Below, piece by piece: positions 2,724 to 44,880 of a stretch of 64,000 nt of DNA. The first letter of the stretch is position 1. Each line of letters opens with the position of its first letter. The stretch lies in IMG/VR virus record IMGVR_UViG_3300005805_000063, positions 1 to 64,000 of that record. The stretch is one strand, 5' to 3'. A program made the position numbers and the translations under genes. The notes beneath the pieces were generated by a model. The model was not told where the DNA came from. It saw only the letters and a list, made by a program, of their open reading frames with translations, and made no database searches. The DNA is from a virus (taxonomy: Duplodnaviria > Caudoviricetes).

Positions 2724-3232
2724 TATACCCTGTTATGAACTACGTTGAATGAACCTGTCGTATATCCTGCGTTGTAGGTAATTCTCCATCCCAGTACATC
2801 GTTAGCAGCTATGGATAGTGTACCTGTCCATACTCCACTTGTAAAAGTCAATGCTATGTAACTACCTGCGTTAATCTTATACTCCACCGTATTAATACCT
2901 GCTGACTTTACAACCTTGGTTATTGTAGATGCAAACAACCATGTGTCCTGATCCATGGTAGTAACAGTCTCGAAGCGATACTGGGTATCCTGCTGTCTTG
3001 TTACCACTACCCTGTTATTGACTGCATCGTCTGCTACGCTATGACCTACGAACTTGAGCTTAGGACGCTCAGTGTACTCTACGTTGTCTTGGTCTACTAT
3101 CTTTACAAAGGAGCGAGTATTTGCATTATAAATATCCCAGGTTGTTCCATTCCATATCCATGAGGCACCAGAAGTGGTGTCTGTAAATATCTGACTTAGA
3201 GTGGGACTATTTGGAAAGTCTATTGCGGGCAT
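2723..3232 (-). CDS. Small tail-fibre-associated structural protein
   Basis: 169 aa. N-terminal FPNSP...WIWNGTTW motif common in phage fibre proteins; shares a short module with 7213..7770 and 10074..11789. Confidence 0.6.
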   Translation of the reverse strand: MPAIDFPNSPTLSQIFTDTTSGASWIWNGTTWDIYNANTRSFVKIVDQDNVEYTERPKLKFVGHSVADDAVNNRVVVTRQQDTQYRFETVTTMDQDTWLFASTITKVVKSAGINTVEYKINAGSYIALTFTSGVWTGTLSIAANDVLGWRITYNAGYTTGSFNVVHNRV

Positions 3233-3251: not shown

Positions 3252-5096
3252 TTATATGTCAAATGCAGAGATTTGAGAACCTGTTGTCTGTACAGTTGCG
3301 GCATTTTTAAGCCTTTCTCCAATGGACCCACTTGTCACCATAAGGCTAGTTAGCCTGTCCCAAACAGCTGCTCCTGCCGCATCTCCTGTTATTACAGCCA
3401 ATCCCTTAACATTATCAACATCGACTCCATAGGCTACGTTCAGCGGAGAAGGAACCGCACAGGTTCCTGTATATACCCCCGCCCCATAAGTAGTTCCCAA
3501 TCTGACATCTGCCGGATACGGTTGACCTGAGCTTGTGATTTGATCCGATGAATAAAGTACAACGGGTGTTGTACCATCTTCTTTTCTAAAAGTCCATGTT
3601 CTTCCTGTACTGCCGGTAAAGAATAGCTTCCATGTTACAAACAACATTGCTCCATTAACTGCATTTGTGAGACTGGTAGCATTTGTTGTCACGCTTGAAG
3701 ATGAATTACTTACACTATATACCACGCAATATCCTGAACTTGAAATTAATCCAGTATGATTCACTACTGCATATCCATTTATACAAGCCGTAGAACCAGA
3801 TGCTATTAGATTTCCAGTTACATTTACGGCAATAACTGAAGTAGAAGGATTATAAATTGCAGTTGTCAATGTTGCATCAATATTGCCAATAACATTTATT
3901 GTTGGAGATCCACTGGCAATATAAATTGGACAGTTTCCTAACGATGCTGGAGATATACCATAAAGACTTCCTGTTATTGTAATCGTAGGACTTCCACTGT
4001 TTATCCAAATTCCAGCTCTGGTGCTAGTTCCAGTTTGATAAATAATATTTCCTGTAACATTTACAGTGCAACTAGATGTTATGAATAAACCATGACAGTT
4101 GTTATTTGAATTTGTAGTAGTAATATTACCTACAACATTAAGTGTTCCTAATCCACTTACTGTAACTGAACCTAATCCAGATCCATAATTAAAAAGATAA
4201 GCACTAATATTACCATTGATATTAAGCGTTCCTGTTCCACTATGATTCAATCCATAAGTCGATGCTCCTCCTCCTCCATAAATAGCTCCTGTATTTATTG
4301 TAGATGTTCCGCTACCTGCATAGGTAATAAATGAGCCAGCTGCTACACGATAACCTTGAATATCTGTTGTAGCATTAATTGTATAACCTGATGGTAAGAC
4401 CAAGACCCCATCTGTAATAAAACTAGTTGTAGTACAATAAGGAGAATTAGAGGACTCGGTCATCTCTAATTCCTCAATTATTGGAGTAACAGCCCCAAAA
4501 GTAATTGATACATTTATTCTATATCTTGTATATGAGGTAGTATTTGATAAAATAGAACTTATGTATATAGTTGACGATGGTATTGATAAAGTTGTAATTG
4601 TATCTAAAATAGACCAAGTAACGCCATCATTTGAACCCTCAAAAGTCCAAGAATAGGGTGCATAAAGAGTATTAGAATTAATTTTAAAACTGTATCTTTT
4701 TACAGTTTTTCCAGAATTAAAATAAAATCCCAACCATCCTGTATTATTAGTATTGGATTGCCAATAATTACCATTAACTTGAGTTCTATTAAAAGCATAC
4801 CAAGCAGTTGTAGCAGAATTATTGGAAATAACAGAACCTGTACCTACCGGATCCGTATTGCTTGTCATAACGGGAATAAGAGAATCCGGAAGCATTTGGT
4901 AAAGAGCAGTACTAAAAGAACTCCACCCTTCCGGCATTACCCAAGTTGACCTTAAAGAGTTTACTGTTATGTTTTGGTCAACGGTAACGGTCTTTCCAAG
5001 AAAATACACATTGTCTCCTGAAGTCGGCACTACTCCATTTTCCCAAGTAGATGTGCTTGACCAGTTCCCGTCAGCAATTGCAACTCTTATTGCCAT
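3252..5096 (-). CDS. Tail fibre/receptor-binding protein with F5/8 type C (discoidin/CBM32-like) domain
   Basis: 614 aa. WQSN...GWLGFYF...KRYSF...WTFEGSNDGVTW...YTRYRINV is a discoidin-like signature, followed by Gly/Thr/Asn beta-rich repeats. Paralog of 5096..6901. Confidence 0.7.
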   Translation of the reverse strand: MAIRVAIADGNWSSTSTWENGVVPTSGDNVYFLGKTVTVDQNITVNSLRSTWVMPEGWSSFSTALYQMLPDSLIPVMTSNTDPVGTGSVISNNSATTAWYAFNRTQVNGNYWQSNTNNTGWLGFYFNSGKTVKRYSFKINSNTLYAPYSWTFEGSNDGVTWSILDTITTLSIPSSTIYISSILSNTTSYTRYRINVSITFGAVTPIIEELEMTESSNSPYCTTTSFITDGVLVLPSGYTINATTDIQGYRVAAGSFITYAGSGTSTINTGAIYGGGGASTYGLNHSGTGTLNINGNISAYLFNYGSGLGSVTVSGLGTLNVVGNITTTNSNNNCHGLFITSSCTVNVTGNIIYQTGTSTRAGIWINSGSPTITITGSLYGISPASLGNCPIYIASGSPTINVIGNIDATLTTAIYNPSTSVIAVNVTGNLIASGSTACINGYAVVNHTGLISSSGYCVVYSVSNSSSSVTTNATSLTNAVNGAMLFVTWKLFFTGSTGRTWTFRKEDGTTPVVLYSSDQITSSGQPYPADVRLGTTYGAGVYTGTCAVPSPLNVAYGVDVDNVKGLAVITGDAAGAAVWDRLTSLMVTSGSIGERLKNAATVQTTGSQISAFDI

Positions 5097-18660: not shown

Positions 18661-21600
18661 CTATCTTGGATTTACGTAACTTCCGCTTACCTCATCGTAG
18701 ACTTTAATTGAGCATTTTGCCATGTTGTTCTCAGTCTCTTTATTAGTCGTATAAGGGACAAACTTGTTTTTTCCAACATTCATTAATGCCCTCTGAATCC
18801 GGTCGTTTACAGGCATTTGACTGTTTTTAAACGCAAGATACTCATATTCTATATTAAAATTTTCGTATTGCTCAAGCGTTTCAAAGGCATTATAGGGCAA
18901 GGCAGTCGAGTAGGTGCCATCGGCTAATTTGACCGGGGAAGTCCACCTTTTCATTCTGAAATTGACTTCTAATACCTTTTTATCAACCCGGACAACAGGA
19001 TTGTTATTAACCATAATAACAGCTGCTGCGTAAGGAGATATCGATAATTTATTGATATAAGTCACATACTCAACATTGATAGGCTCCTTAAAATCCTTTG
19101 AGATATAAGTTTTCTTTCCTACCAATTTTGCAGGGTTCTTTTCAAACTTAAAGTCTGAATAAGGTATTGCAAGATTATTTAATTTGGCCCTGCCATGTTC
19201 ATTTGCAATTTCCTGATTAATTGCATCTGCAAGACTCTTGTTAGGAATGTTAACTTCATAATCAAGGAAATTGATATAATCTGATTTATCATCGATTGAC
19301 ATCAGACTGGTAAATGAGCCTTTTGAATTTCTATCTCTTGTTACAATGAGATTGTAAATAAACAGACGTTTGCGGTCAATAGGCTCAAGTCTCTGAAATT
19401 CTTCCATGTATAACGCACGCAAGTCATCATTCATGTCATAGAAATCATACATCCTGATTTTTGATTCTTTTGTAAAATCATTGGTATCCAAAGTCAAATC
19501 CTTTATGAATTCGTTATCTGGATATTTTGACTTAAGATTCAAAAGACTGTTGTTGACTTCATTAATAAACTGAATCCGACCCTCGTATGAACCGAGATTT
19601 GCAGTTGTAATCAAAGAGGTATCTCTTGAGTTCAGATAGGCGTGAATGTACATTCCATGAACAGTGTTATAATCCCTTGTAAAGTTTTTTGGATTATAAC
19701 GATAATTAATTGAAACGCCTTCCTTAGGCTCTGAAAGCAAAGCCTCATTTCTCAAATTCTCACTAGTCACAGCATATATAGTATTATACGCTTTGATGTC
19801 CTTAAACATATTATGAGCCTGAGCGATTGCTTCCTGATATGCACGCATGTGAGGAGCATTGTCAAATATCTCAAGAATATTGTTGTCGTGATTTCCAGTA
19901 GCAATCAGAGAATCATACAATTTTATCTGCCTCTCAGCATAGCTGCGGTCATCTGAGAAGAATCTTTCAAAATTAAATGGTTCGGTCTGTAAACCTGCTT
20001 TTGAGTAAGACATGTTTACATAATTCTCAAGAGTCAGGATATGAGATGCAATATCTTCCATCGTGATAGGGATATCACGATTAATAAGACTTTGGGTCAA
20101 TACATCCCATTCTGTTTTATACAAATACAACTTCTGCATCTCAAGGGGTTGACTGTTAATGTTAAACCCTTTAGTTGAGTTGTATTCTTTTGACTTCCTT
20201 ATTGCATCAAAGAATGGTTTTTTTGCATTGATATATTCAGCAATTTGGGAAATGCTCATTCCTGTAGATACAAGATAGCTTATGTACGGAGCAGTAATTT
20301 GGTCAAATGACAGAGGACCAAGTACTCCTTCGTTTGCATTATCAACAGCTGCAGAAATCAGAGATGCAAAATTCTCCCAAATCTTATCCGGTTCGCCGGA
20401 GAAATCTTTTCCTTCTTTAATTTCCTTAAGTCTCTTTGCAAGATAGATGACATTATATGCTTTTGCACCATTTGCAAATATGCCTACAAGATTTTTACCA
20501 CCTGCCTGATTCATTTCGTGGATTTGCAGAAGCGACATCAGATGGTCAAACTTAAGTTTCTGCTCTTCAGAAGAACCTTCAAGAATAACTTCTTTCAAAG
20601 CTCGTAACTCTGTCATTACATCTTCCAATGTAGTGTTAAGTTCAATGAGTGATTTTGAATCGGACAAAACATCATTCATTGCTCGTGCAAGCTCGTTCTT
20701 CTGAGCTATCTTTTGGATAGCTTTCAAATCCTCTTTTGAGAAATTCTTAACTGATTTAATCTCATTAAGATTAGATTCAAAAGGAATCAATCCGGTAGGG
20801 CGTACATTCTTTACAACAAATTGAGAGTAATTGGGATTTCTAGGATCATAGGTCTTAATCTCACGACCTCCTTTAACGGTCGGGTCAACCATAGTATATT
20901 CCTTAATACTCTGATAGGTTACATATGAACCTTTGTCATAGTCTTGGTCAGCACCCTGTACAGTAAACAATTCGGCAGGTACCATAACTGAATTCATCGA
21001 CCCTTGGAAGAATCCTGCAATTACAGTCGAAACGGCAGAGTGCTTTCCAGATGTAGGAATCCTTGCCATTACTCCTTCAAGACGTGTCCTGAAAGACTCA
21101 TACATCAGTTTTGCCCTCTTCTTTTTGTTATCAGAAATTATCTTTGAATTGAATTCGTCTGGAGTTAACAGTTTTTGCAAGAAATACCTCTCATTGATTT
21201 CGTCAATTGGAATATTATTGGCAATAACATCATCCAATTCAAAGTCCTCAAACATTTCGGCAGGAAGAAGGATTTCGGCAAATCCCTTTGACCATTTATC
21301 ATTCCTAAGTGAGTTGTTTATTGTTTCTTGGTCAATCCCAGTTTCATACATCTCAGTCAGTGAAACTCCATCCTCACGAACAGGAGACTGCCATTTAAGT
21401 CTGCGTGAAGTGATTTTATATTTTTGTGTATCTAAGTTTCTAACTTGAGATTTAAGAAGAATCCGTTTTACAGGCGATTTTGTAGTTATATTGGCTTGTG
21501 GTTGAGCAAATGTATTAGCGTATACATCACGTATAGCTTGTTTACCTTGTTCAGTAATTTGTCTAGTTCCAATTCCAGCAAAATTCTTTTTAAGAACAGG

Positions 21601-24600
21601 TACTGCAGACTGAACAAACATCTGACCGTTCCAAGTATACCAGTTGTTATCTTTTTGGTTAAATACATGGATTTCACGGTTATTAGCCTGACCCATAGCA
21701 ACCGCCCAACCAGTACCACCCTCTACAGTTTTCATATCCTCACTAATAGGAGCAACAGCTACAATCTGTTCAGAGTTTTTAACTTGAAACCAGTTACGGG
21801 CAAGAAGGTTAATTGTCTCAGTTTTCTGAGGATTTTTACCAAGTACTACCGCAGCTTTACGCATCTCAGCAATACCTTCCTGAAGCTGCTCTTTAGTAAG
21901 AAGTACATTACCTTTAGGAGTCTTATTTCCATAGTAGTAATGCTGATGATTTACAACCCCGACTTTTCTACCCTCATCGTCCCATATAGAATCTGCACCT
22001 AAAGCACCACCAGAGTGGTTAGTGTACTCGGCTGGATTATTTATTTCATATATAGTAGGTTTAACAGCAGATTGACCAGCTTGTGGTTGAGATAAAGCAG
22101 CTAGTTCTGCATCATATTTAGCGTTTATTACATCTTCTATTGTAAATGCAGCATAGACCTGTCCACCCATTAATCTAATGGTAGCACCTTCTGGTAAATT
22201 AATCTGTTTACCATCAATAGTAAATTCAACCCTATTATCTTCTTTACTAGCTTTAATATAAGTAATATTCCAGCCGAAATTATCTTTAAAAAATTTACCT
22301 ATTTTAGATAGTTTCTGTTCGACAGTTACACCTTCTGGAGCAATTACTTCACCATACTCTTTGGTTAAAGTTTTACTTTTTTCTATATCAGCTTTCTTAT
22401 CAGAAACAGAAACTTTACTACGTTCAATAATAACTCCATTAATAAAATCAGGTATATCTACCATACCACGCATAGAGCCATCCGCTTTTACAACTTTTCC
22501 ATTTCTAAAATAAGTTACTCTTCCATTTGGTTCAATTAATTTATCGCCTTCTTGAAGTTGTTTTTTAAAATTTTCTGCTATCTCATTATTTTTGTCTGCT
22601 TCTACAGAAGATAACGCTTTACCACTTTTACCTTTAGCTCCACCAAGTTCACGAAATGTAAAATAACGTGGTATTTCTATTCTTTCTATATCAGCTTTCT
22701 TAGCTTCTACTTCCGCATACTGAGAGTATAGTTGTTGAGCTTGTTGTTTATTTTTTAACTGCACTTCAAAGTAAGAACCTTTATCAATAGCGTAACCTTT
22801 GTCTAATAAAGATTTCCAAACTTTATTTGCAGATTTATTAATATCTGCTTTGCCAAAAGCTTCTGATTTTAAGGTTTTACCTTCTTTAGCTAATTGTTCT
22901 GCTAAAGCAATATATACTTTTGTTCCATACCCTTTACCTTGAAATTCCTTTTCAAGTTCTACACCAGCCATACCTATAGAAGATGATATATAACCATTTT
23001 TATCTACAGATATTACACCTGCATATTTCCCATTTATTTTAATAGGATACGATGTTGCCTCAAAATTATCAGGATTAAATCTTGGTTCATCTAATTGTAT
23101 TTCAGAAGTATTAGGCGCGGCTTCTTCTGTAGATATCTCTTCAACTTCATAAACATCCATCAAAGAAGGATGGATTACAAAATGACCACCTTGTAACCCA
23201 AAGGCAACCGCTGAGTTACGGATGTTAGTTGCAATTGTTTGAGTATACTTTGGAGCAATTGTCCTGTCATTAATTGACAGACGATTTACTGAAGCAGCAT
23301 CGGTTCGATAATTAGACCCATCAGTTGAGAGTAAATCCTCTCTCATGATTTCGCTAAAATATTTTACCCTTTCAGCAACTTTCATTTTACTAAGTTCCTG
23401 AATATATGACTTTGTCATATCAGACAAAGTATCATAGAACTTCTTCAGAACCGGAGAGTTGACCCAGTTAATTGCTATGGCGTTGACTAATTGGGTCAGT
23501 ACATTTACCTCCATTCCTTGAGACGGGTCTTTGGCACCATCTTGCTGGATACCCTTCATTGTAATATCAATGGTGGATACCTTAGGATTTGGGTCTGAAA
23601 GTTTGTTTACTCCTCGCTGACCAGTCTTTTCAGAAGATTGAAAAATAGCTTCATCAACAATATAGTCTTGAAAACCATTCTCAACCATTATGTCCATTGC
23701 CTTTTCAAAAATACCTTCTTGCTTTGTTGCATTTGAAAAATTAGGATTCATTCCTAATGCAATGATAAGCTGATAAGCATTTGACACAGATTCGCCATTG
23801 ACCTGAATGACTTCGGGGAAAGTCATAGCAGAGGTCATCTGAACAAATTTTTCTATTACAAATTCGTTTCCGTTTTCAAGAATATACGGAGTGATTTCAA
23901 ATTCGGCATTCTTAACAAATGATTTTGTTCCTGATTCAAAATCATTTGAATGAGTGATGTTCTTCATAACAGGACCTACAAAAGGACCTGCGTCAAGTGC
24001 ACTTGAGTAATTCTGTTTTATTCTGGTAAATGGTGTTACCAGTGTAGCACCATCCATCCATTTTTGAGATACAATTTGACCGTTTGAAAACTTAAGTACA
24101 TTATTAATAGGGTCTTCAAAACGCATTACATTTGCAACCCTTGAAAGCTTTTTACCTTCATACATCAATGAGTATGGAAGAGGCTTTCCAGGATTTTGTT
24201 GCCTGAACAATGCAACGTCAGCTGCCCAATTTTTATTCCTCAGTATAAAATACGACTCGGGAGAAATCAAAGACTTAGAGCGTTTTACCATGTCGATAAA
24301 AGCTTTCTGTCCTGACTCCTTATACTGGTATTTTGGACCATTCATTAAATGCTGAAACTCTCCACTAAAGAGTAGCCAGTTGGCGTAGAAGGTTTTAATA
24401 AACTCTTCCGGAGTAGCCTTACTAGAAGTTATAGCTATTTGGTTGTAAAGAGTTACGCCACCACCTCTTTGATTCTTTGAATATTCAACAACTTTCTGTG
24501 CATCTGCAAGAATACGGTCTATAAAAGCCTGTTTATTTGCAGGATTCATGTACATATTAATGTCATCAATCAATTCTTGTTTGATTGACAAAGGTCCTTT

Positions 24601-27600
24601 TACAGACTTCTCATTGTAATGCACACCGGATACCATATTAGGGTACGATATCAAGGTGTTGATTTGGTCTTCAGTAAGTTTTGAAAGTATAGAATTAAGT
24701 TCTCCAATGCTTTTTGCAGAAATTCCAACTTCGCGATAGTCATTCAAAATTTTGAATTCCAAACCAGCATAATACTTGGTTCTGCTATCAAACAAATCTC
24801 CAAGTGTTTTTTCTGCTGGCTGCAGGAAATTATTTGAATAGAAAATTGGAGATATCTCCTGACTTGCATCTGCATAAACTGTAATCGGGAAAGTAGCTTC
24901 GTTTCTTCCGTTTTCAATCTGAGTTACATACCCCTCAATCAAATAGAGGTCAAGAAGTTCAGGAACAGTTAGCTGACTTACCGACTTAGTAAATTCAAAT
25001 CCGTTTTTATTAATTTTAAATCCAAGATGTGTAAACGGAGGCTTTGAAGAAATTCCATAGGAGGAGTTTCCATCCACCAAAAGATTTGTCTGAAGTAGTG
25101 GACTTTTCTGAGCACTTGAAACAACATGTTTCAAATGGAAAATAGGAGCACTATCTCGAAGACCGTACTGACGTTTTCCAGTCCCATCTTTAAATGAGAA
25201 GTCATTTCCTAATCCTTTTGCAGAAACAAACTGCTCAATTATTTTATCCATTACCAATCCAAGGGACGGCAAAGAGGCCTGCTTTTTATTGTAGTTCTTT
25301 ACAGAAGCAAAGAAGTAATCCTGAATCTGACCAAGAATTGTAGGGTCTACTGCAATGGCATCTTGAAGCATTTCAGATGTAAATCCTTCAAATCCCATGC
25401 CCTTGAGCATGCGTAAAGCATTCTCGGGAGTTACATTTTTTTCAACTGTATAGAGTTGACCATTGAGATTTACATCACCGTTAGAAACTGAAATTCTTCC
25501 TGTGCTAAGGATTCTTGCGAACTTGTCCAGGAATTGAGTTTTGATGTACTGAGGATTAAATCCACCAATTGGAAGCTTAGCCGTTCTTTGCTCACTAGAT
25601 GTATTCTCGTCATAATAAACGTTAACATCTACAAATCCAGGTGAATAAACTTGACCTTTGGTAAGAAAGCTGAGTATTGCGTTGGTTAAATTCTGACCAG
25701 CAGGCGTCTCTACTCCACGAGTAGAGTAAGTAAGGTTATTGGTTTGTGACCCTGTAACAGATGAGGGTTCTGGGGATTTTGAGAAGAATCGCTTATAGAT
25801 GGCCTTTGCCTCTGGCAATGAGGAGTTGCTTAAAACTTCTGCAATTTCATCCAATGTTCTAATGGCCTGTCCGTCTGAATTTGTGTTATTCTTAATCAGC
25901 TTAAGGACATTGGATATATTCTTAGAGGTGATGTAATTTCCATTTGCAAGTCTGGTATTGTACAGATAAGTTTTTACAATGGAGTTCATGCCATCTCCAA
26001 GGAGATTCTCCATTTCTTTTTCTGCAAAAGAACCGGATTTTGACAGGTCATTTCCGTAGTAATACTCGTCTTTTGAACTATTATATTTTATAGAAGGAAA
26101 GTACTGTGCCAGTAATCCATTGAAATTGCTTCCCAAAGCATACTGAATTCGAGACTCAGTATTTGTCTTTTGGGACATGAGATTGCCATTTGACAAATAA
26201 ATCTTTTTCAGATTTGTCATTGCCTCGTTTGCATCAAGGATTCTGGGAGTTCCGCCTTCAGGAACTGTCAGAACAAGATGGCTTGCAACAACATCCTTCT
26301 TGAATTTATCAATTGCTTTTCTTGCAAGGTTAGGTTGATTTGGAAATTCCCTCCTTCTGAATTCAACAATTGAAATCGGATTTACTGAGATGGCCGGTCC
26401 TTGTACAGATTCTTGTACACTTTGTTGTACAGTTTGTTGTACAGTTTTACCAACTGGTTGAACCGGAGCAGCTTCCTTATTTTGAGTAGATATCTCAGAA
26501 AGAACTGCCTCAATTGGAATCTGTATCTTAGGAAGATCCAATTTAAAGTAGTTTGCAGAAATAACCCTATTGAGGAAATTTTCCTGATATGGTACAGATT
26601 GAGCATAAAGATTTTGCTCAAATCCTGAACTACCTTTTGACAAAACCGGACTAAACCGAAGACCTCTTGAGAAGGCTTTATTCTCCATCATAGCCATTAA
26701 GAGTTTCCTCTTAGGCTCTGAGTTCATATTTAAAAGTTTCTTTGCGTCCTTCTCAAGAGAGATTTTAACATAATCATCTAGCAAATACTCAACTGGATAT
26801 CCGCCCTCAACTCTTATCTTTTTACCATTGGCAAGAATTACTTCATGCGCTTTTCTTTCGACATCCATCTTCTTCAAGAACATGTCTACTTGAGGGTCTT
26901 TTTTAGACAGCTCTTGTTTTACATTATTGAAAATCTCTTCGTAAAGACGTTTGCCCTTTGACCTAGGTGATTGCCAAAATGAATTGTAGAGATTTTTAAA
27001 TTCAGCACTTGTTGCTTCGTAGTAGCCTTTCTGATTTCTACTATAAAACGGAGAAAGTAATTCAACAATTTGGTCCAAGCTCAATGACTCACGATTTAGA
27101 GTCATTGTTTTGATGTCGTCTCCTAAAACATCAAATTCATTGTTATACATCTGCCTGGCCGAGTGTTTATAACTCAGTGCAACAAATGGCTCTCCTTTCA
27201 GTACGGATACTTTTCCTTTTGAATTAATTATGTCAGCCGTTGCTATTAAAATAGGACTTACAGCAATTCCTTTTGACTTTGCCTCTGATAAGATATTTGA
27301 GTATGTCTTTTTATCAACGGCTTCAGATTGCTTATTTCCATCCGGAGATACATTTTTTGAAGAAGATTCATTTTCAATAAAAGGGTGAAAGAACTGACCC
27401 GCCCGTAATATATTATTTGAAACCGGATATGTTGCTACAATATCCTTTGTTTCACCTTGCGTAATAATATTAAGATTTCGCAAGGTTGTTTCAACCTTCT
27501 CACCTCCGGCACGATATATTACACCAAGCACAGCCCGCTTGTTATCCGGAGTAACTGCTTCAAGAAAGATTGCGTACTTTCCATTGAATTTGGAGGAATC

Positions 27601-30600
27601 AATTCTTGCATCTGCAACATATCCCGGAGAACCTATTTTGGCAATTGTAACCTGATAGTTTGAGTTATCGCGGACGCTTGGATTAAACAGAATTGATTTC
27701 TTTATTTCCAACTCACCCTGAACATCATAGAATGTATTTAACAATACCCTGTTTTCGGTATTGGTCATTGCATTCATTATCCTGCGGTAATCAGCCATCT
27801 CCAAATCATCCTGACTTACAGGGCTAGGAGCAGAAGTTTCAGTTGTTGTTGGTGTCTGAACAACTGGAGGAACGGCCTGAGAAGGAGTTTTGATTGTCTC
27901 CGCAGGATTAAAAGAAGAATCAATTGTTTGGCCTTGAAGGATGCTGTCAATTTCACCAAGCATGGTCTGCTGTGAAATTTCAGGAGGTGTCATTGGCTTA
28001 AATTCCTTAACTACCCCCTCAACAGAGCTTACAGGCATTGAAGGAGATGCGTAAACAATCACACCTTTCTTTGCCCGTGTAACGGCTGTATATACTTCTT
28101 TCTGACGGATACTTGAGCCAAATATTTCACCATCAGAAGTATCAACAACCACATAATCCCATTCATCACCTTGAGATTGTACGCTATCAAGTACATTCAG
28201 TGAAAGTGCACTTGCAGAAGATACAGCTGTATTTTCAGGATTAGCATTGATGTAAACCATTGAAGAGAGATTCTTTTCACTCTTCAGTTTTGTTGCCAAG
28301 TCAACTACTAATTTTTCAAGTTCTTCTTTATTGCTTACAAAGCGGACTCCGTTAAAATCCTTATCGTAATTCAGAGCAATATTTGAAGGAAGAGCATTGG
28401 AAAACTGGGAATTCCTTAAAGCATTTTCAAGAGCTTTTAAAGGATTGTTTACAGACCTGAATGAGAATGTCAGCCTCGGAGTTGATGGTACAGAAATTAC
28501 AGGACTTGTAATTGAGTAAGTAGTTTTGCTGTTTTTCTCCCTAAATCCATTTTGTGCTTCATCATAAGTATAAATTAAATGAACTGGATTATTTGGACGG
28601 GATTGATTTACTCTTAAAAGCTCAGTGTTGATTTTATTCAATTCACTTGCACTCAGCAAAGCGGCTTCATCAAATATGATTGCAGATACATTTTTAACCT
28701 CATTGGATTTCAAGATATCAATAAGGCTTGAATCAGAATGCTGAATAAAATCAGGCTTTCCTTTAAAGAACTTTTCTACATCACTACGAACCTTCTGTAT
28801 TTTCTTTCCTGAAGGGTCTTTATAAGCAGTTACAATGACATTTCCACCTGTCATTTTATTTATCATAGCTGCGATAAAAGGAATTTCCGTAACCGTTTTA
28901 CCTGTTCCGGGGCCTCCGTTTACTGCAGAAGTATAACTTAAATGAAACAGTTCTCTGCTAGAATTTTTTACCCTGAAGTCATAATTACCAGCCATTGCAT
29001 TTCGCAATGCCAATTCTGCAACAAGCTGATGTTCCCTGGTAGGGGTTTTGACATCGGGTTTAAGTTCAGCAATTACCTCGCGTGCTGCCTGAACAAACTT
29101 TGTTGGGTCGTTTGAAAGAACAGCACGAGCGTAATCATAGGTATTCTTTGCCAAAATACCTTCATCGGATAACAATTCCGGGTCACCTCCCTTAAATGTC
29201 TTTTGAAGTTTCTGCAGTACTTCGGTTCTCTGACTTCTAACAAAGTCAAACATCTTTTTATCAACCTGAAGTGACTCTCGACGATAGCTGATATAATCTT
29301 GCTTATCAAGAGCTTCCTGCATTTCTACTTCATGCTCAGAGAAGATTTCGCCTATTTTTGGAATATCAGTCTCAAGAAGCTTTACAAAATTCTGTAAAAC
29401 ATTAAACTGCTTCTCAAGTGACTTTATATAAACCTGAAGAATCCTTGCATCGGTATTCTTTTCATTTTCATCAGAAAGAGCTTTGAGTTGTGCAAACTGG
29501 CCTTTCAGAGTGGCCAATGTCAACAGTGCATTCTTAGTATCATATACTTCTGCGCTGATAATTTCATTGTAACCTTTCTTATTCTTAAGAGCGTAGTTAC
29601 CTAATACTTGGGAAATCCTGTCGTCAATTACCTGTATAATACGGTCAGGCTCAGGGCTTACAAACATTTTAGAAAGCCTGTCAGACTCTTCTTTAGGAGT
29701 TCCGGTTAATTGACCAGCAGCTCTGGCAAGCTCTTCCAATTTAGATTCTAAAGGAACGGTTGATTTACCATTCTCAAAATCATAATATAAATGAGAGTCA
29801 CCCTCAATATCAGGAGCTGTTTTATAAGTTTTCTTTTGAGAAACTTTATTTACTAATTCCTCGGCTGCAAACAAAGGAGCAACTTTTGCATACCACTCCT
29901 CATTCTTATAAGGTTCAACTGCTCTTTTTAATACTTCCTGTGAGAATCGGAAACTAAATTCCGGATTTGACGTATGTACAAGAGAAGCATCAAAATCTTC
30001 ATCATCTGCAAAGATTTCATTAATGATGTTATCAACTCCTGAGTTTTTATAATTTTCTACTTCCTGATTTCTGCGGGCATTTGCCTCATCCAAAAGACGC
30101 TGTTTGGCATCTGGAGTTATGTCAAGCTCATTAAAGTTGTCCAAATTTGCTTTGGCTGAGTTTTGAATAAGCTCTTGATTTCGCTTTGAAACCTCAGATT
30201 TCAACCTGTCACGATTGTTCCTTGAATCAGTATTCATCAAGGTGAATAACTTACCATTAAAATGGTCGTTATTTCGTAATCCAAATTCAGTCAGACCTTC
30301 AATTCCCAAATCTGAGGAGTCAATAACTGTTGATTTCAGATGTGGATTACTCTCGACATTATAGAGACCTTCAGTAATATATCTTGAAACCTGAGACCCG
30401 GAATTAAATTCAGAAATCTCAGCTTTTTTAGCCTCGACTTGTTTGGTGAGATTTTCAATCAGCTGTTTGTCATCTGCTTTTTCTGCATTTTCAAGCTGAT
30501 TGGTAAGAGTTGCTAGTTCATTTTGCAGGATGATTTTATCCCTGCCAATTGAACTGGATTTTAATATATCCGCAAAAATGCCTGCTTTCTTCTCATTGTT

Positions 30601-32265
30601 TTTAATAGCATCCGTAATACCCGCCCTGTCACGGATAGTGGACATTGTGTTTAGAATCTCTCTGAGAGCAGTTGCATTTCTTGTGTTCTCGTCTCCCGTT
30701 TTTCCATCTTTTGACAAACGACCTGCTTTTTCCCAATCGTTAATCATTTTATGTACAAAACCTTCGTCATTAAAAGCAACAGCTGCTTCAAATGAATCAA
30801 CTAATTCCCTATCATAGTTTGATAACTTTTTAAGAATGGGGTGTGCAATAGCACCGCCAAATGCACCTCCAGCACCTGACTGAAGAATTGCTTCAACTTC
30901 CCTTCCCAAATCCCACTGAAAGCGACCCTGTAGAGGTAGCAGCTCCGCCATTACATTATGCAGACCTCTGATACCAGTATCTACAGTTTGTTCTCCCATT
31001 TCCTCAATACCTTCAAGGAATGAGGTTTTAACATAAGGCTTTGATGAAAGAGATATCAAAGCACTTTCAAACGTTCTGCCTACTCGATTTTGAAAAGATT
31101 TTAATGCAGATTCGGTGAATCCTTTCTTTGCAATTGTAACTCCATAGTCTTGAGCAAGTTTTGGAGCTATTATCTTTTCAAGCTCAAGAGGCCTGATTCC
31201 GCGAACAATCATGTCGCTTAATCCTGACAACTTATATATTGCAGCTGCATTTGCACCATATAGAATTGCAGTTTCAACAGGACTGAGATTATTTTCCCGT
31301 GAAATTTGAGCCATGGGGCCTGCTGCCATTCCAGTCATGTAAATTCGACCGGCTGCTGATGCAGTTTTTGCAGAGCCAGAAAGTGCTCCTGCAACTTTTC
31401 CAACTGCACCCATGCTAAACAACTGCATGACAGAATCAAGACCAAGTTCTGCCAAGTGTACAGGACTAAAGAAGTTTTCTTTGGTTCTATCACTAGAGGG
31501 AAGGAGATTTTGTTTCAGTTGATTTTGTATGCCAGAAACATCTGCTCCAAAAACCCTTGGAAACTCAAGCAATGAGCTGCTTGTACTATTTATAAAATTT
31601 GGAACAGATTTAACTACTGTATAAAATCCCTCAGACAGATAACTGGGATTTAAACCATAAATGCCCATGTTATGGGCAAAAGAATCATAGCTTTCATCAA
31701 AGCTTCTGAACTCCTCATCGGCCTTAATTGGTTCCCAATAAGTACGATTGTGAGAGTCTCTTTTATAATTACCAAATTCATCCTTGGCAAGCTTAATATC
31801 TCCCTTATACTGGGCTACAGGTATATATTCATCTCCTATTTTTACACCTGTTTTAATTGCTTGCTCCCGCTCACTAAATTTCTTGGGAGAATAGTAATCT
31901 CCAAAGTTATTTCTTCCAAAAGGGTCTTCTATCTGAGTTTTTGTTGAAAAACCAATAAGAGGTTTACGAGACCACTTATCTGTTGCAACATCTATATTGA
32001 AGTCAAGTTCGTAATCGGACTTTTTTGTCTGATTGTAAACTTCTTTTTGCTTAGAGTAAAAATCAATAAAAGAGTTCTTATCATTCTTAAAATGCTCCTG
32101 AACAACAGGAGTTTTCCAGTATGTATCGAGATTCTCATCAAAGTTGAAATCAGACGCCTTTACCCCAGCAGCCATCAGCTGAGATGGAGTTTTCAGTTGT
32201 CCCGAGATGGCAGATGCAATCCAGTCTGGTTTCGGAGCTTGAGGAATTTGATTTTCATCTCCCAT
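18661..32265 (-). CDS. Giant virion-packaged RNA polymerase (crAss/phi14:2 gp66-like) fused to an SF1 helicase, with inserted GNAT-like and SLOG-like domains
   Basis: 4534 aa. Catalytic DxDxD as VQGADQDYDK (nt 20935-20949), preceded by ARIPTSG. Beta-like motifs DMVKRSK, WMDGATLVTP and FVKNAEF. Helicase motifs GGPGTGKT, IIFDEA, YDEAQ, SQGDEWDYV and YTAVTRAK. Occupies the cargo position after the muzzle gene. Confidence 0.85.
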   Translation of the reverse strand: MGDENQIPQAPKPDWIASAISGQLKTPSQLMAAGVKASDFNFDENLDTYWKTPVVQEHFKNDKNSFIDFYSKQKEVYNQTKKSDYELDFNIDVATDKWSRKPLIGFSTKTQIEDPFGRNNFGDYYSPKKFSEREQAIKTGVKIGDEYIPVAQYKGDIKLAKDEFGNYKRDSHNRTYWEPIKADEEFRSFDESYDSFAHNMGIYGLNPSYLSEGFYTVVKSVPNFINSTSSSLLEFPRVFGADVSGIQNQLKQNLLPSSDRTKENFFSPVHLAELGLDSVMQLFSMGAVGKVAGALSGSAKTASAAGRIYMTGMAAGPMAQISRENNLSPVETAILYGANAAAIYKLSGLSDMIVRGIRPLELEKIIAPKLAQDYGVTIAKKGFTESALKSFQNRVGRTFESALISLSSKPYVKTSFLEGIEEMGEQTVDTGIRGLHNVMAELLPLQGRFQWDLGREVEAILQSGAGGAFGGAIAHPILKKLSNYDRELVDSFEAAVAFNDEGFVHKMINDWEKAGRLSKDGKTGDENTRNATALREILNTMSTIRDRAGITDAIKNNEKKAGIFADILKSSSIGRDKIILQNELATLTNQLENAEKADDKQLIENLTKQVEAKKAEISEFNSGSQVSRYITEGLYNVESNPHLKSTVIDSSDLGIEGLTEFGLRNNDHFNGKLFTLMNTDSRNNRDRLKSEVSKRNQELIQNSAKANLDNFNELDITPDAKQRLLDEANARRNQEVENYKNSGVDNIINEIFADDEDFDASLVHTSNPEFSFRFSQEVLKRAVEPYKNEEWYAKVAPLFAAEELVNKVSQKKTYKTAPDIEGDSHLYYDFENGKSTVPLESKLEELARAAGQLTGTPKEESDRLSKMFVSPEPDRIIQVIDDRISQVLGNYALKNKKGYNEIISAEVYDTKNALLTLATLKGQFAQLKALSDENEKNTDARILQVYIKSLEKQFNVLQNFVKLLETDIPKIGEIFSEHEVEMQEALDKQDYISYRRESLQVDKKMFDFVRSQRTEVLQKLQKTFKGGDPELLSDEGILAKNTYDYARAVLSNDPTKFVQAAREVIAELKPDVKTPTREHQLVAELALRNAMAGNYDFRVKNSSRELFHLSYTSAVNGGPGTGKTVTEIPFIAAMINKMTGGNVIVTAYKDPSGKKIQKVRSDVEKFFKGKPDFIQHSDSSLIDILKSNEVKNVSAIIFDEAALLSASELNKINTELLRVNQSRPNNPVHLIYTYDEAQNGFREKNSKTTYSITSPVISVPSTPRLTFSFRSVNNPLKALENALRNSQFSNALPSNIALNYDKDFNGVRFVSNKEELEKLVVDLATKLKSEKNLSSMVYINANPENTAVSSASALSLNVLDSVQSQGDEWDYVVVDTSDGEIFGSSIRQKEVYTAVTRAKKGVIVYASPSMPVSSVEGVVKEFKPMTPPEISQQTMLGEIDSILQGQTIDSSFNPAETIKTPSQAVPPVVQTPTTTETSAPSPVSQDDLEMADYRRIMNAMTNTENRVLLNTFYDVQGELEIKKSILFNPSVRDNSNYQVTIAKIGSPGYVADARIDSSKFNGKYAIFLEAVTPDNKRAVLGVIYRAGGEKVETTLRNLNIITQGETKDIVATYPVSNNILRAGQFFHPFIENESSSKNVSPDGNKQSEAVDKKTYSNILSEAKSKGIAVSPILIATADIINSKGKVSVLKGEPFVALSYKHSARQMYNNEFDVLGDDIKTMTLNRESLSLDQIVELLSPFYSRNQKGYYEATSAEFKNLYNSFWQSPRSKGKRLYEEIFNNVKQELSKKDPQVDMFLKKMDVERKAHEVILANGKKIRVEGGYPVEYLLDDYVKISLEKDAKKLLNMNSEPKRKLLMAMMENKAFSRGLRFSPVLSKGSSGFEQNLYAQSVPYQENFLNRVISANYFKLDLPKIQIPIEAVLSEISTQNKEAAPVQPVGKTVQQTVQQSVQESVQGPAISVNPISIVEFRRREFPNQPNLARKAIDKFKKDVVASHLVLTVPEGGTPRILDANEAMTNLKKIYLSNGNLMSQKTNTESRIQYALGSNFNGLLAQYFPSIKYNSSKDEYYYGNDLSKSGSFAEKEMENLLGDGMNSIVKTYLYNTRLANGNYITSKNISNVLKLIKNNTNSDGQAIRTLDEIAEVLSNSSLPEAKAIYKRFFSKSPEPSSVTGSQTNNLTYSTRGVETPAGQNLTNAILSFLTKGQVYSPGFVDVNVYYDENTSSEQRTAKLPIGGFNPQYIKTQFLDKFARILSTGRISVSNGDVNLNGQLYTVEKNVTPENALRMLKGMGFEGFTSEMLQDAIAVDPTILGQIQDYFFASVKNYNKKQASLPSLGLVMDKIIEQFVSAKGLGNDFSFKDGTGKRQYGLRDSAPIFHLKHVVSSAQKSPLLQTNLLVDGNSSYGISSKPPFTHLGFKINKNGFEFTKSVSQLTVPELLDLYLIEGYVTQIENGRNEATFPITVYADASQEISPIFYSNNFLQPAEKTLGDLFDSRTKYYAGLEFKILNDYREVGISAKSIGELNSILSKLTEDQINTLISYPNMVSGVHYNEKSVKGPLSIKQELIDDINMYMNPANKQAFIDRILADAQKVVEYSKNQRGGGVTLYNQIAITSSKATPEEFIKTFYANWLLFSGEFQHLMNGPKYQYKESGQKAFIDMVKRSKSLISPESYFILRNKNWAADVALFRQQNPGKPLPYSLMYEGKKLSRVANVMRFEDPINNVLKFSNGQIVSQKWMDGATLVTPFTRIKQNYSSALDAGPFVGPVMKNITHSNDFESGTKSFVKNAEFEITPYILENGNEFVIEKFVQMTSAMTFPEVIQVNGESVSNAYQLIIALGMNPNFSNATKQEGIFEKAMDIMVENGFQDYIVDEAIFQSSEKTGQRGVNKLSDPNPKVSTIDITMKGIQQDGAKDPSQGMEVNVLTQLVNAIAINWVNSPVLKKFYDTLSDMTKSYIQELSKMKVAERVKYFSEIMREDLLSTDGSNYRTDAASVNRLSINDRTIAPKYTQTIATNIRNSAVAFGLQGGHFVIHPSLMDVYEVEEISTEEAAPNTSEIQLDEPRFNPDNFEATSYPIKINGKYAGVISVDKNGYISSSIGMAGVELEKEFQGKGYGTKVYIALAEQLAKEGKTLKSEAFGKADINKSANKVWKSLLDKGYAIDKGSYFEVQLKNKQQAQQLYSQYAEVEAKKADIERIEIPRYFTFRELGGAKGKSGKALSSVEADKNNEIAENFKKQLQEGDKLIEPNGRVTYFRNGKVVKADGSMRGMVDIPDFINGVIIERSKVSVSDKKADIEKSKTLTKEYGEVIAPEGVTVEQKLSKIGKFFKDNFGWNITYIKASKEDNRVEFTIDGKQINLPEGATIRLMGGQVYAAFTIEDVINAKYDAELAALSQPQAGQSAVKPTIYEINNPAEYTNHSGGALGADSIWDDEGRKVGVVNHQHYYYGNKTPKGNVLLTKEQLQEGIAEMRKAAVVLGKNPQKTETINLLARNWFQVKNSEQIVAVAPISEDMKTVEGGTGWAVAMGQANNREIHVFNQKDNNWYTWNGQMFVQSAVPVLKKNFAGIGTRQITEQGKQAIRDVYANTFAQPQANITTKSPVKRILLKSQVRNLDTQKYKITSRRLKWQSPVREDGVSLTEMYETGIDQETINNSLRNDKWSKGFAEILLPAEMFEDFELDDVIANNIPIDEINERYFLQKLLTPDEFNSKIISDNKKKRAKLMYESFRTRLEGVMARIPTSGKHSAVSTVIAGFFQGSMNSVMVPAELFTVQGADQDYDKGSYVTYQSIKEYTMVDPTVKGGREIKTYDPRNPNYSQFVVKNVRPTGLIPFESNLNEIKSVKNFSKEDLKAIQKIAQKNELARAMNDVLSDSKSLIELNTTLEDVMTELRALKEVILEGSSEEQKLKFDHLMSLLQIHEMNQAGGKNLVGIFANGAKAYNVIYLAKRLKEIKEGKDFSGEPDKIWENFASLISAAVDNANEGVLGPLSFDQITAPYISYLVSTGMSISQIAEYINAKKPFFDAIRKSKEYNSTKGFNINSQPLEMQKLYLYKTEWDVLTQSLINRDIPITMEDIASHILTLENYVNMSYSKAGLQTEPFNFERFFSDDRSYAERQIKLYDSLIATGNHDNNILEIFDNAPHMRAYQEAIAQAHNMFKDIKAYNTIYAVTSENLRNEALLSEPKEGVSINYRYNPKNFTRDYNTVHGMYIHAYLNSRDTSLITTANLGSYEGRIQFINEVNNSLLNLKSKYPDNEFIKDLTLDTNDFTKESKIRMYDFYDMNDDLRALYMEEFQRLEPIDRKRLFIYNLIVTRDRNSKGSFTSLMSIDDKSDYINFLDYEVNIPNKSLADAINQEIANEHGRAKLNNLAIPYSDFKFEKNPAKLVGKKTYISKDFKEPINVEYVTYINKLSISPYAAAVIMVNNNPVVRVDKKVLEVNFRMKRWTSPVKLADGTYSTALPYNAFETLEQYENFNIEYEYLAFKNSQMPVNDRIQRALMNVGKNKFVPYTTNKETENNMAKCSIKVYDEVSGSYVNPR
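22380..22702. repeat. Pair of exact 20-bp direct repeats (TTTCTATATCAGCTTTCTTA; encodes part of KKADIE) 303 bp apart, in frame, inside the vRNAP insert
   Basis: Read directly at 22380-22399 and 22683-22702. Confidence 0.85.
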
Positions 32266-42105: not shown

Positions 42106-44880
42106 TTAGCACATTTTACTGAACTTGGTCTTACCACCCATACGATATTCAGGAGCAGAAGTAGATTTATTTTCTCTTTCTTCTTTAAGTCTCTTACGCG
42201 CTTGACGAACATATCTCATAGGAACTCCCATAGCAGAAGGGTGACGTCTATCTGGAGCAAAAGGAAGTATGGGATTATCAGTACCATTATCTATCCAATT
42301 ATCTTGAATGGCATCTCCTCCAAGAGCTATTGGTCCCAATAGACCAAACGCGGTTGACATTCTCTCACCAACTGATTTGCTATTTCCAGGAAAATTAGGA
42401 AGTGCATTGACTAATTGAGAGGCAAACTCAAATCCAGCGTTTCCTTTTGAATTATTAACATTATAATTAATATCATTTCCTTTTAATGCAAGATTTAGTG
42501 GCAGGCCTTTCCATCCTCCAAACCATTTTAGACCTGCCTCTGCCATGTTTTCCAATCGACTATCTCCAAAATTTTTACGCCTTTCTGTTCGATTCCAATT
42601 CAAACTTTTCTCTGCAAACTTTTCTGCCTTTGCTCGTTTTTGTTCTTCGCTTAATTTTGGAGGAATAATTGGAATTAGTTTTTTTGACATAGGCATTTTT
42701 AAACCCACTTGTCCAGAAGGAACTTTAGGAAGTTCTTGAAAGTTTCCAACAGCTCCAAAAGGAATAACATCTTTAGATGTTTTTTGCTTTCCTACAAATT
42801 GTGGAATTCCTCCTTTTGATACAATATATGCTTTCATTGCATTTGTCATATCTCCAATTTGAGGATTACTTTCATAAATTCCTTTTACAGTTGATAAATC
42901 ATTAGGAGTAAACTTATTTTTTGCTTTTGAAAACATAAAATTATCATAGTCTGATTTATTTGTAAACCTTGGGTCACTTGATTCGTAGTTTACAAAAAAA
43001 TTTGAAGGACTTGATGAAGTTGACTCAACTGGTTCCTTTCCATAATTTGCATTTATTTGGGTTAATTCGGCAGGAGGAAAGGAGTAACCAGTACCCCTTG
43101 AAGCAATTAGATTTCTATCCTCTCCAAGAAATTTTATTCCACTTTGCCCAAGAAGAGGTTTCTTTACACCTCCTTGAAAGACGGGAGCAGTTGCTTTAGC
43201 ACGGTTGCTTTCACCATACCAACTCTGCTGAGGATTTTTGTTAAGGTCCTGAACAGCATCTCCAGCCTGTACCCAATGGTCAGGACGACTCAGCATATGG
43301 CCACCCATTTTGTAGCTTTTTGCAGGGATAGTTTTATCTCCAAACGTAGAGTTAGGAAAATCGCCACCCTCAAACATACGAGCCTTAGGGCTTGAGTCTT
43401 CGGTAAAATTCATCATCCCGGCTGCAGAACTCCTGTCCGTACGGAGAGGCGTGCTGATACGAGCCTTCGGACTTCCCATTTGACCGCCAAGTGCCATTTT
43501 AAGTGTATCAATAGAACCTCCAAATTGATGCTTCCATTTAGCAGCATTACGGGCAAAGTTTGCACGCTTGACAAGCGTGGGTGAGTATTTCTCTTTGTTT
43601 GCAAGAACCTTGCTTGCAAATGCCTGTACTCCCATTCCTGCCCTGTTTGCAGAGGCAGTGAATTTGCCCCTGTTTTCAGGCTTGATGTGGATGCCACTCT
43701 TTCCATAGAGTTGACCGCCATTTTTAAATGGCAAAGCCCAAAGACCATTGCTCAGGGGTTTCTTGTGCGCATCGGCAGCATCATAGGGTACGTTTCCAAA
43801 CTTTTCCATAGTTCCTCCTTCTTTGTGTTGCGGTAAAAGATATTTTGAAATTTTATAAGCGTGTGTAGTTGGCATAGGATATTCTGTTACTGATTTTGCA
43901 CCCGGGAAATGGTACTCCTGTTCCGGTTGCATAATTACTTGTTGTTTTTTATCTGTCTCGGCAAATACGGGATATGGTACTCCTTTCATTGTAATATCGT
44001 TTCCGGGTATTGTTGTGACTTTACCTGGATGAGCCCATTGACCACGTGGGTCTACAATCGAGCCACCTTTTTGGTTAAACCAAAGCATGCCTCCGCGGCC
44101 AAACTTGTTTTTTTGTTCTCTATAAAACTTTACGTGAGGATTTACTTTTGATGCACTGTCATATTCTCTGTTGAATTTTGGGTCCTTTCTTAAAAGGATT
44201 TTTTCAACATACTGCCTTGGTTCAGTTGAAAAATGCTTAATCCAATCAGTATTTTTATAAATATCTATGCCTTTGCTTTTTAATTCATTTAGCTTCCTTA
44301 GAGTTGCAGTTGCACCTTGGTTGTAGGCAATTAAAGTCTTTGCCAATCTGACATTTTCTGGCTGATTCTCTACATTTATCCAAGGTCTATTATACAAACT
44401 GTTCATTATATTAGTTTGCATTCTTATTGCAATCTCTGGATTGAATAAGTCCTTTTGGCTATACTTTGTATGATATCTTTGATTATAATCTCTTCGTGCG
44501 ATATCTTTGATTTGTGCCCAACCAGCAGCTTTTGAGTCTTTGTTAAAAGCATTGGGATTATATGTACTTTCTTTATAACCCTGACTTTCTAAAATTTTAT
44601 AAGGAACTTTAGTAGATGGTACAGGTTTTTCTTTAGATGAAGTCTTTACTGGCTGTTTTTCATCTTCAGACTCAAATGGATTTATATAATCGATAGCCGA
44701 GCTAATTCCTTTCTTGATATAGTCAAGAATACCGCCACCAGTCTGCAAGTTTTTTATCTTACGCTCTTGCGCAAGCATTTCCTTAGTTGGCTTCTTTCCA
44801 CTTCCCTTGTTGGCACGAATATTATCCCACAGACCTCTGCGAGAATATGAGCCATCCTTACGTTTGATAAGGTCACTCAT
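42106..44880 (-). CDS. Mosaic virion protein containing an SLT-type lytic transglycosylase domain
   Basis: 924 aa. YKESTYNPNA (catalytic Glu), AAGWAQI, AYNQG and EPRQYVEKIL follow the SLT pattern at about 44180-44600. Additional short modules are separated by xxGG linkers. Confidence 0.7.
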   Translation of the reverse strand: MSDLIKRKDGSYSRRGLWDNIRANKGSGKKPTKEMLAQERKIKNLQTGGGILDYIKKGISSAIDYINPFESEDEKQPVKTSSKEKPVPSTKVPYKILESQGYKESTYNPNAFNKDSKAAGWAQIKDIARRDYNQRYHTKYSQKDLFNPEIAIRMQTNIMNSLYNRPWINVENQPENVRLAKTLIAYNQGATATLRKLNELKSKGIDIYKNTDWIKHFSTEPRQYVEKILLRKDPKFNREYDSASKVNPHVKFYREQKNKFGRGGMLWFNQKGGSIVDPRGQWAHPGKVTTIPGNDITMKGVPYPVFAETDKKQQVIMQPEQEYHFPGAKSVTEYPMPTTHAYKISKYLLPQHKEGGTMEKFGNVPYDAADAHKKPLSNGLWALPFKNGGQLYGKSGIHIKPENRGKFTASANRAGMGVQAFASKVLANKEKYSPTLVKRANFARNAAKWKHQFGGSIDTLKMALGGQMGSPKARISTPLRTDRSSAAGMMNFTEDSSPKARMFEGGDFPNSTFGDKTIPAKSYKMGGHMLSRPDHWVQAGDAVQDLNKNPQQSWYGESNRAKATAPVFQGGVKKPLLGQSGIKFLGEDRNLIASRGTGYSFPPAELTQINANYGKEPVESTSSSPSNFFVNYESSDPRFTNKSDYDNFMFSKAKNKFTPNDLSTVKGIYESNPQIGDMTNAMKAYIVSKGGIPQFVGKQKTSKDVIPFGAVGNFQELPKVPSGQVGLKMPMSKKLIPIIPPKLSEEQKRAKAEKFAEKSLNWNRTERRKNFGDSRLENMAEAGLKWFGGWKGLPLNLALKGNDINYNVNNSKGNAGFEFASQLVNALPNFPGNSKSVGERMSTAFGLLGPIALGGDAIQDNWIDNGTDNPILPFAPDRRHPSAMGVPMRYVRQARKRLKEERENKSTSAPEYRMGGKTKFSKMC

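Follow-up and report, generated by a model that had tools for sequence, protein, structure and literature searches.

Two codon-fixed linkers at module junctions of giant phage proteins, with a probable role in in-frame module exchange

Polyvalent proteins are giant products of phages and conjugative elements in which 2–15 unrelated enzymatic or binding domains are combined as a mosaic, and they are predicted to accompany the DNA into the host (Iyer, Burroughs, Anand, de Souza, Aravind 2017, PMC5512222). Here we describe such a candidate, P0001, together with two short linkers, L1 and L2, that separate its modules. P0001 is the product of a 4534-amino-acid (aa) open reading frame (ORF) at 18661..32265 of the window, by which we mean the whole 64,000-nucleotide (nt) stretch analyzed, positions 1 to 64,000 of the 86.6-kb IMG/VR virus record IMGVR_UViG_3300005805_000063 (Duplodnaviria; Caudoviricetes); this ORF and all features within it given below as a..b lie on the minus strand. 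P0001 resembles the described polyvalent proteins in being phage-encoded and in carrying many unrelated domains, and the domains listed in that paper include helicase, GNAT, ART-PolyVal, PD-(D/E)xK, and NADAR. It differs in that PMC5512222 makes no mention of linkers and raises recombinational variability by analogy only.

Polymorphic toxins such as CdiA and Rhs have a conserved pre-toxin junction motif, after which the variable domain is replaced in frame by cassettes (Zhang et al. 2012, PMC3482391). The likeness to the present locus lies in a short conserved motif placed right before a variable domain, here L1 before the modules that we call B and C. In the toxins, however, it is a C-terminal tip that is swapped from adjacent orphan cassettes, each with an immunity gene, whereas here the modules are internal, bounded on both sides, arranged in arrays, and carried by virion proteins of lytic-type phages. 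Neither orphan cassettes nor immunity genes were seen beside P0001, the neighbors of which are other large virion genes.

Tetart et al. are said to have reported in 1998 that the tail-fibre genes of T-even phages recombine at conserved motifs. Such motifs are not known to form a two-part grammar flanking every module, unlike L1 and L2. Nor do we know of any report that motifs of the tail-fibre type are codon-fixed across unrelated genes and phage groups. What the tail fibres have in common with our case is the use of short conserved stretches as crossover points at which functional segments are swapped. A further parallel is the mosaicism that phage recombinases, with their tolerance of homology that is short and diverged, drive in phage genomes (De Paepe et al. 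2014, PMC3945230).

P0001 also resembles the crAss-like virion RNA polymerase polyproteins of the Cellulophaga phage phi14:2 gp66 type, being a giant ORF in a block of virion genes and having an invariant DxDxD-type motif. Polymerases of this type have two double-psi beta-barrel domains and a catalytic DxDxD motif. The differences are that no match between P0001 and the solved polymerase was obtained, by sequence or by fold, and that the module array of P0001 is missing from most of its orthologues. Polyvalent proteins, their mosaicism, and exchange at conserved junction motifs are therefore already known. Newly described here, and going beyond PMC5512222, are two junction elements with fixed codons, the measured concentration of homology breakpoints at these elements, and an insertion hotspot with a fixed place in one protein backbone; our search of the literature on linker motifs, including that on crAss-like phages and polyvalent proteins, returned no description of any of the three.

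Linkers L1 and L2 and their codons

An exact 20-mer occurs twice in the window, at 22380-22399 and 22683-22702 on the plus strand, with no third copy when up to three mismatches are allowed; the repeat reaches 23 nt if one mismatch is tolerated. None of 100 dinucleotide shuffles of the window contained two matches. On the coding (minus) strand the 20-mer reads K-K-A-D-I-E plus one flanking base per side, and the two KKADIE copies are residues 3189-3194 and 3290-3295 of P0001, spaced 303 bp, or 101 codons, apart. A preliminary description of this DNA had pointed to an exact, in-frame repeat at this spacing, and the motif scan and the shuffles bear it out. If encoded with the codon frequencies of comparable ORFs, two KKADIE peptides of independent origin are expected to agree in all six codons with P ~0.03.

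The repeat is not a trait of the window gene alone, as both copies are the core of a stereotyped inter-module linker, L1. All 69 of the exact 20-mer matches in IMG/VR are in the KKADIE frame, within a wider L1, and inside giant ORFs, many of them longer than 2000 aa and running off the stored DNA, and a KYDAELAAL-type string often precedes L1. These ORFs have no similarity to P0001 outside the linker, and Pfam searches of six linker-bearing giant ORFs gave no match. The L1 consensus is roughly D-I-E-A-KKADIE-RRRQEEL (~17 aa); the window has the short form, which lacks the RRRQEEL half, and short and long forms differ by a clean 10-residue indel. Copy 1 in the window (V-E-A-K-K-A-D-I-E) is at 22683..22710 and holds the 20-mer at 22683-22702, while copy 2 (KKADIE), at 22380..22399, is itself the second 20-mer.

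The codons of L1 are fixed family-wide. Using a degenerate back-translation of KKADIERR, we found one five-codon string at 64 of 79 distinct viral sites, compared with 8.4 expected from the codon usage of the same ORFs (binomial P ~4e-48, with sites treated as unrelated). In the dereplicated set, third-position identity is 0.85–0.96 in the L1 core against a background of 0.38, and the flanks are at background immediately; within the core, the first Lys codon varies freely. Silent-site identity among homologues of module B is 0.71, and that of the linker is higher. The preliminary description had held that the silent-site identity of the window pair exceeds what the peptide needs, and this is seen across the whole linker family rather than in the window pair only. 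Because the codons are fixed throughout the family, the finding of two identical copies in the window is in itself unsurprising (odds roughly one in three).

In a control with cellular genomes, the fixed codons were seen at 8 of 81 occurrences of the KKADIERR pattern, most of these in giant phage-like ORFs within metagenome-assembled genomes (MAGs). Giant ORFs with a full L1 (L176, L178, L183, L219, and L220) are on contigs placed in MAGs of Nitrososphaeraceae, Saccharibacteria, and Saprospiraceae; these are probably phage contigs, either mis-binned or host-associated, and are possible clues to hosts.

The second linker, L2, is of the INAKYDAELAAL type or INAKYDAELAALE, with the fuller form I-N-A-K-Y-D-A-E-L-A-A-L-E. 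The window copy (I-N-A-K-Y-D-A-E-L-A-A-L, 22093..22128) has the family codons. Among 60 sites from loci not chosen for L2, Ile is encoded by ATC in 43 of 54, compared with a background of 9%, and Leu by CTA in 31 of 60, compared with 9.5%; Ala is GCA at one position and GCT at three others. L1 and L2 together separate modules in giant polyvalent virion proteins of many uncultured AT-rich phages. Two further linkers had been proposed earlier from the window sequence, and of these AKYDAELAAL is genuine and widespread, while QQAQQLYSQY turned out to be the C-terminal end of the GNAT module, with which it travels.

No blastn or tblastn match to the linker junction was obtained in ~50,000 GenBank phage records (low-complexity filter on). 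The repeat region of the window had no match to GenBank phages in a DNA search, and in a protein search only its DprA/SLOG-like part did.

Modules, homology breakpoints, and a fixed hotspot

Across 124 linker-bearing loci, 35% of 428 internal ends of homology blocks are within 30 nt of a linker core, compared with 1.7% of random positions. In each of the contig pairs L041/L058, L017/L062, and L024/L037, an identity of ~90–95% runs as far as an edge of L1, past which the two contigs are unrelated. Among relatives the linker-flanked modules vary, and in homologues the linkers mark the breakpoints of homology. Assembly chimerism at the linkers is judged unlikely, since assemblies usually finish with k-mers longer than the identical tracts of 20–50 nt; it is also countered by frames that stay open for thousands of codons and by the occurrence of the L131-type arrangement in independent samples.

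The stretch between the two 20-mers, module B (residues 3195-3289, 22399..22683), is a small alpha/beta domain. The earlier suggestion that it is a discrete module holds, as these residues recur elsewhere as one unit. Module B was found in at least 25 giant proteins of 2050–5640 aa, at varying positions and always with other neighbors, and once as a free-standing 124-aa gene amid small accessory genes of a T4-like phage. This gene (L267 3999-4373; L268 6001-6375) is near genes for FKBP, HAD_SAK_1, 2H-SAK, and a UVR-domain protein, and the phage encodes gp32. The giants that carry module B also have ART-PolyVal, GNAT, PD-(D/E)xK, PIF1/UvrD helicase, and NADAR domains, which makes them polyvalent proteins as PMC5512222 uses the term. 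Additional scans of viral and metagenome contigs with the module B alignment added few loci. Module B had no match in Pfam or by Foldseek, VIA-align matched its helical stalk only, and the ESM Atlas returned only unnamed viral clusters (score 0.88).

Module C (residues 3296-3391, 22093..22380) follows copy 2 of L1, which forms its N-terminal boundary, and ends in L2. It is 79.6% identical in nucleotide sequence to L003, a locus that is like the window minus the 303-bp unit, and this homology starts at the linker. Homologues of module C in P0022, P0046, and P0047 are always bounded by L1 and L2, with differing neighbors. L1 stands ahead of module C in every homologue found, and ahead of modules B and C taken together in nearly all. 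An origin of B and C by tandem duplication was rejected, the two modules being unrelated (E = 0.15).

Each copy of L1 belongs to its own module. Module B and copy 1 together form a block with ~95% identity to L143, which has its left breakpoint at the left edge of L1 and reaches to the end of the module; copy 1 thus goes with module B in L143, as copy 2 goes with module C in L003 and P0046. The bracketing of a module by a locally matched linker repeat was found in four independent cases: the window, L130, L140, and L142. In L130 an exact 39-nt repeat (2968-3006 and 3271-3309) brackets module B at the same 303-bp spacing among other neighbors, and in L140 and L142 a 37-aa mini-module lies within an L1 linker with 12-nt repeats on both flanks. 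In L142 both flanking repeats have an E-to-K change that is absent from another L1 of the same gene.

Modules B and C are part of an array of four (residues 3045-3589, 21499..23133) that also contains the GNAT and DprA/SLOG-like modules. Seven orthologues of P0001 (27–67% identity) align over the entire protein except at this one spot, and on both sides of it. In the closest relative, P0028, the spot is filled with 404 unrelated aa, in P0029 with 44 aa, in P0030 with 36 aa, and in P0031 and P0034 with ~0 aa. Nucleotide identity between P0001 and P0028 is 69.5%; it ends at residue 3043 and restarts at residue 3621. As the orthologues are empty or differently filled at this place, the four modules constitute a lineage-specific array at a fixed hotspot of the backbone. 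The near-empty hotspot of P0029 retains an L2-like string, QQINAKYDTELKTL, at residues ~3118-3135, possibly a remnant or a landing pad.

Silent-site identity is 0.56, that is, at saturation, between the backbone of P0001 and its closest orthologue, 0.92 between module B and L143, and 0.80 between the GNAT module and L001. With silent sites so much closer in the modules than in the backbone, the modules must have arrived long after the backbones diverged.

The GNAT acetyltransferase module (residues 3052-3183, 22717..23112) is recognized by PF00583 at residues 3060-3150, with a score of 22.1 bits where the gathering cut-off is 20.7, and has the motif FQGKGYG, of the Q/RxxGxG/A type. It is 88% identical to L001 across 387 nt, with abrupt ends on both sides. 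A GNAT domain 89% identical to that of the window is found in P0015, a 2584-aa polyvalent protein; residues 32-285 of P0015 match an SU10-type portal domain (E = 1.6e-46), so that it looks like a portal–polyvalent fusion. The DprA/SLOG-like module (residues 3412-3588, 21502..22032; phrog_768, E = 4e-9) is 49% identical to a domain (42419-42952) that Klebsiella phage Pylas, an N4-like phage, has within its annotated virion RNA polymerase; the stand-alone genes called 'DprA-like' in gut crAss-like phages share 43% identity with the module. Its presence in both P0001 and the Pylas polymerase places one accessory domain on two unrelated kinds of (in the case of P0001, putative) virion polymerase.

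The giant protein and the structure of its linkers

The window also encodes a portal protein, a large terminase, and virion structural genes. A superfamily 1 (SF1) helicase (residues 1112-1405, Pfam), the GNAT and DprA/SLOG-like modules, modules B and C, and the polymerase motif are all within the single 4534-aa ORF. The hallmark families ART-PolyVal, MuF, and zincin peptidase were not found in P0001 by Pfam, while ART-PolyVal is present in the linker-sharing relatives P0015 and P0016. The candidate catalytic motif, GADQDYD (20935..20955), is part of a string, QGADQDxDKG, that is invariant in 7 orthologues, and this string and the fitting gene context are the grounds on which we consider P0001 a putative crAss-like virion RNA polymerase polyprotein. 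An AlphaFold2 model of residues 3590-4200 had a predicted local distance difference test score (pLDDT) of only 64 and gave no fold match by Foldseek.

Some further features of these genes were observed. Elsewhere in P0001, a low-complexity linker of the VQQTVQQSVQESVQ type is encoded by a tandem repeat of family D1 with a 12-nt period (26404-26447). P0001 has one Cys 17 residues before its C-terminus (C4518), which is invariant in orthologues, and about half of the linker-bearing giants (P0002-P0027) have a cysteine in their last ten residues, mostly in the last four (...KLNC, ...KGCP, ...FKKC, ...DLDC). At L141 1-491, an IS605 OrfB/TnpB (Cas12f-like) gene lies directly upstream of the 3510-aa multi-linker gene P0006.

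An AlphaFold2 model of the long-form unit of L131, based on a 10-sequence alignment, had a pLDDT of 80 and a predicted template modeling score (pTM) of 0.67. In it a small alpha/beta core lies between two long helices, L1 at the N-terminus and L2 at the C-terminus, each with pLDDT >90. Foldseek gave no match to this model; the best VIA-align matches were antiparallel two-helix hairpins over both ends (Z ~7, root-mean-square deviation ~2 Å, ~50 residues). The model suggests that the L1 and L2 helices pair as an antiparallel stalk, which would bring the termini of the unit side by side. With its linker helices paired in this way, each module would be a self-contained, insertable domain. Module B of the window has a short L1 and no L2, unlike the modeled unit.

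Proposed mechanism and alternatives

We suggest that the linkers probably act as tracts of shared homology for the in-frame exchange, insertion, and deletion of modules, and that exchange in turn homogenizes the linker DNA. The linkers would offer 20–50 bp of near-identical DNA at which recombination could swap, insert, or delete whole modules with the frame kept. The partners may be co-infecting phages or linker copies inside one gene, and repeated exchange would keep the linker DNA homogeneous. Homologies that are short and diverged are known substrates of phage recombinases (PMC3945230). By analogy with what is known of crAss-like and N4-like phages, the modules would be delivered into the host along with the virion polymerase. 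The preliminary description had envisaged a cassette system of this kind. Its claim of in-frame gain, loss, and exchange at linkers is largely supported, because module B occurs in at least 25 contexts, homology blocks end at linkers, and the hotspot is variably filled; that homology of the linker DNA is the actual cause and substrate of the exchange is, then as now, inferred.

Several observations weigh against this explanation. The other 65% of the homology-block ends lie away from the linkers. In the most recent exchange, that with L143, the right breakpoint is ~25 nt short of copy 2, and L143 then has L2; the left edge of the GNAT module has neither L1 nor L2. Linkers cut off right after KKADIE exist, as do short-form linkers, and some joints are accordingly not simple homologous crossovers. 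The module arrangement of the window is known from a single contig, and among the relatives and contigs searched we found no deletion relative of the form GNAT–L1–C with a single linker. The phage record, which is ~56% complete, yielded no gene for ERF, RecT, or RecA. The injection step hinges on the polymerase, and no polymerase match to P0001 was obtained by phmmer, profile search (PDB), or tblastn. Finally, cause and effect are not separated, as selection for intact domains alone would also gather junctions at domain boundaries.

A more far-reaching possibility, which we raise as speculation, is that L1 and L2 make up a 'splice-site' grammar, defined by its nucleotides and dedicated to the exchange of protein-domain cassettes within ORFs. 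It would amount to an integron-like diversification of ejected phage proteins, kept by selection for exchangeability or served by a specialized enzyme, and a large pool of uncultured phages unrelated to one another would have it in common.

The foremost alternative, which we consider unlikely, is that only the peptide is constrained. The linkers would then be structural helices, spacers, or protease sites, junctions would gather at them only through the purging of recombinants within domains, and exchange would be illegitimate and independent of homology. The confident, paired helices of the model fit this explanation, and so do the truncated and short-form linkers, the breakpoints that lie beside rather than inside a linker, and the movement of the GNAT module without L1 or L2 at its left. 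It leaves unexplained, however, the fixation of codons, including the position-specific use of codons that these ORFs seldom use (ATC 9%, CTA 9.5%) and the GCA/GCT pattern of L2, and it does not account for silent sites being better conserved in the linkers than in a truly homologous module.

Slightly less probable in our view is a cis-acting role of the linker as DNA or RNA, either as a site for a dedicated nuclease or recombinase, as in integrons, or as a signal for translational pausing or RNA processing at domain borders; it would be this role that fixes the nucleotides, and not homologous recombination of the generic kind. Silent-site conservation is very strong in two separate linkers, even where the flanks of orthologues fall to 30–45% protein identity, and flanking repeats co-vary within a genome, both of which speak for such an element. 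Against it, folding of ten L2–spacer–L1 junctions revealed no convincing single-stranded DNA structure (mean z ~-1.2 on either strand, with one outlier; mononucleotide shuffle), leaving an integron-like attC-type site at the cassette borders unsupported. The bracketing repeats of 12, 20, and 39 nt are unlike the products of a site-specific enzyme, no candidate enzyme was found, and the first Lys codon is free to vary.

It is very improbable that the 20-bp repeat was made by a one-off local event in this genome, be it a recent insertion that duplicated its target site or a duplication of the slipped or tandem kind. In favor of such an event, an exact repeat brackets a discrete 303-bp unit, and the layout in L130 is the same, with an exact repeat that is longer. 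Against it, modules B and C have no relation to each other, each linker copy belongs to its own module in other phages (L143; L003 and P0046), the family-wide fixation of codons makes identical copies unsurprising, and no transposase-like signature was seen. A transposon target-site duplication in particular would have a fixed length characteristic of the element, whereas the length of the bracketing repeat differs between genomes. Chance, or codon bias on a short common peptide, could be suspected from the A-rich 20-mer and its frequent codons, and is negligible given the absence of two matches from all 100 shuffles, the P of ~0.03 even given the peptide, and the identical frame and context of 69 of 69 other occurrences.

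Phage polyvalent proteins are thought to bring ready-made counter-defence enzymes into the host, and the fast turnover of their domains is without a mechanistic explanation. A pair of linkers conserved as DNA, at which homology between unrelated phages starts and stops, provides a concrete and testable mechanism for the in-frame exchange of modules. It would be a rare case of silent sites in a protein-coding gene apparently conserved for exchangeability. The layout of a helix stalk plus module suggests a natural scaffold for engineered domain insertions. The linkers are also search handles for metagenomes, where they would delimit many small uncharacterized cassettes, among them B, C, and the mini-module of 37 aa, as candidates for domains of anti-defence or host takeover.

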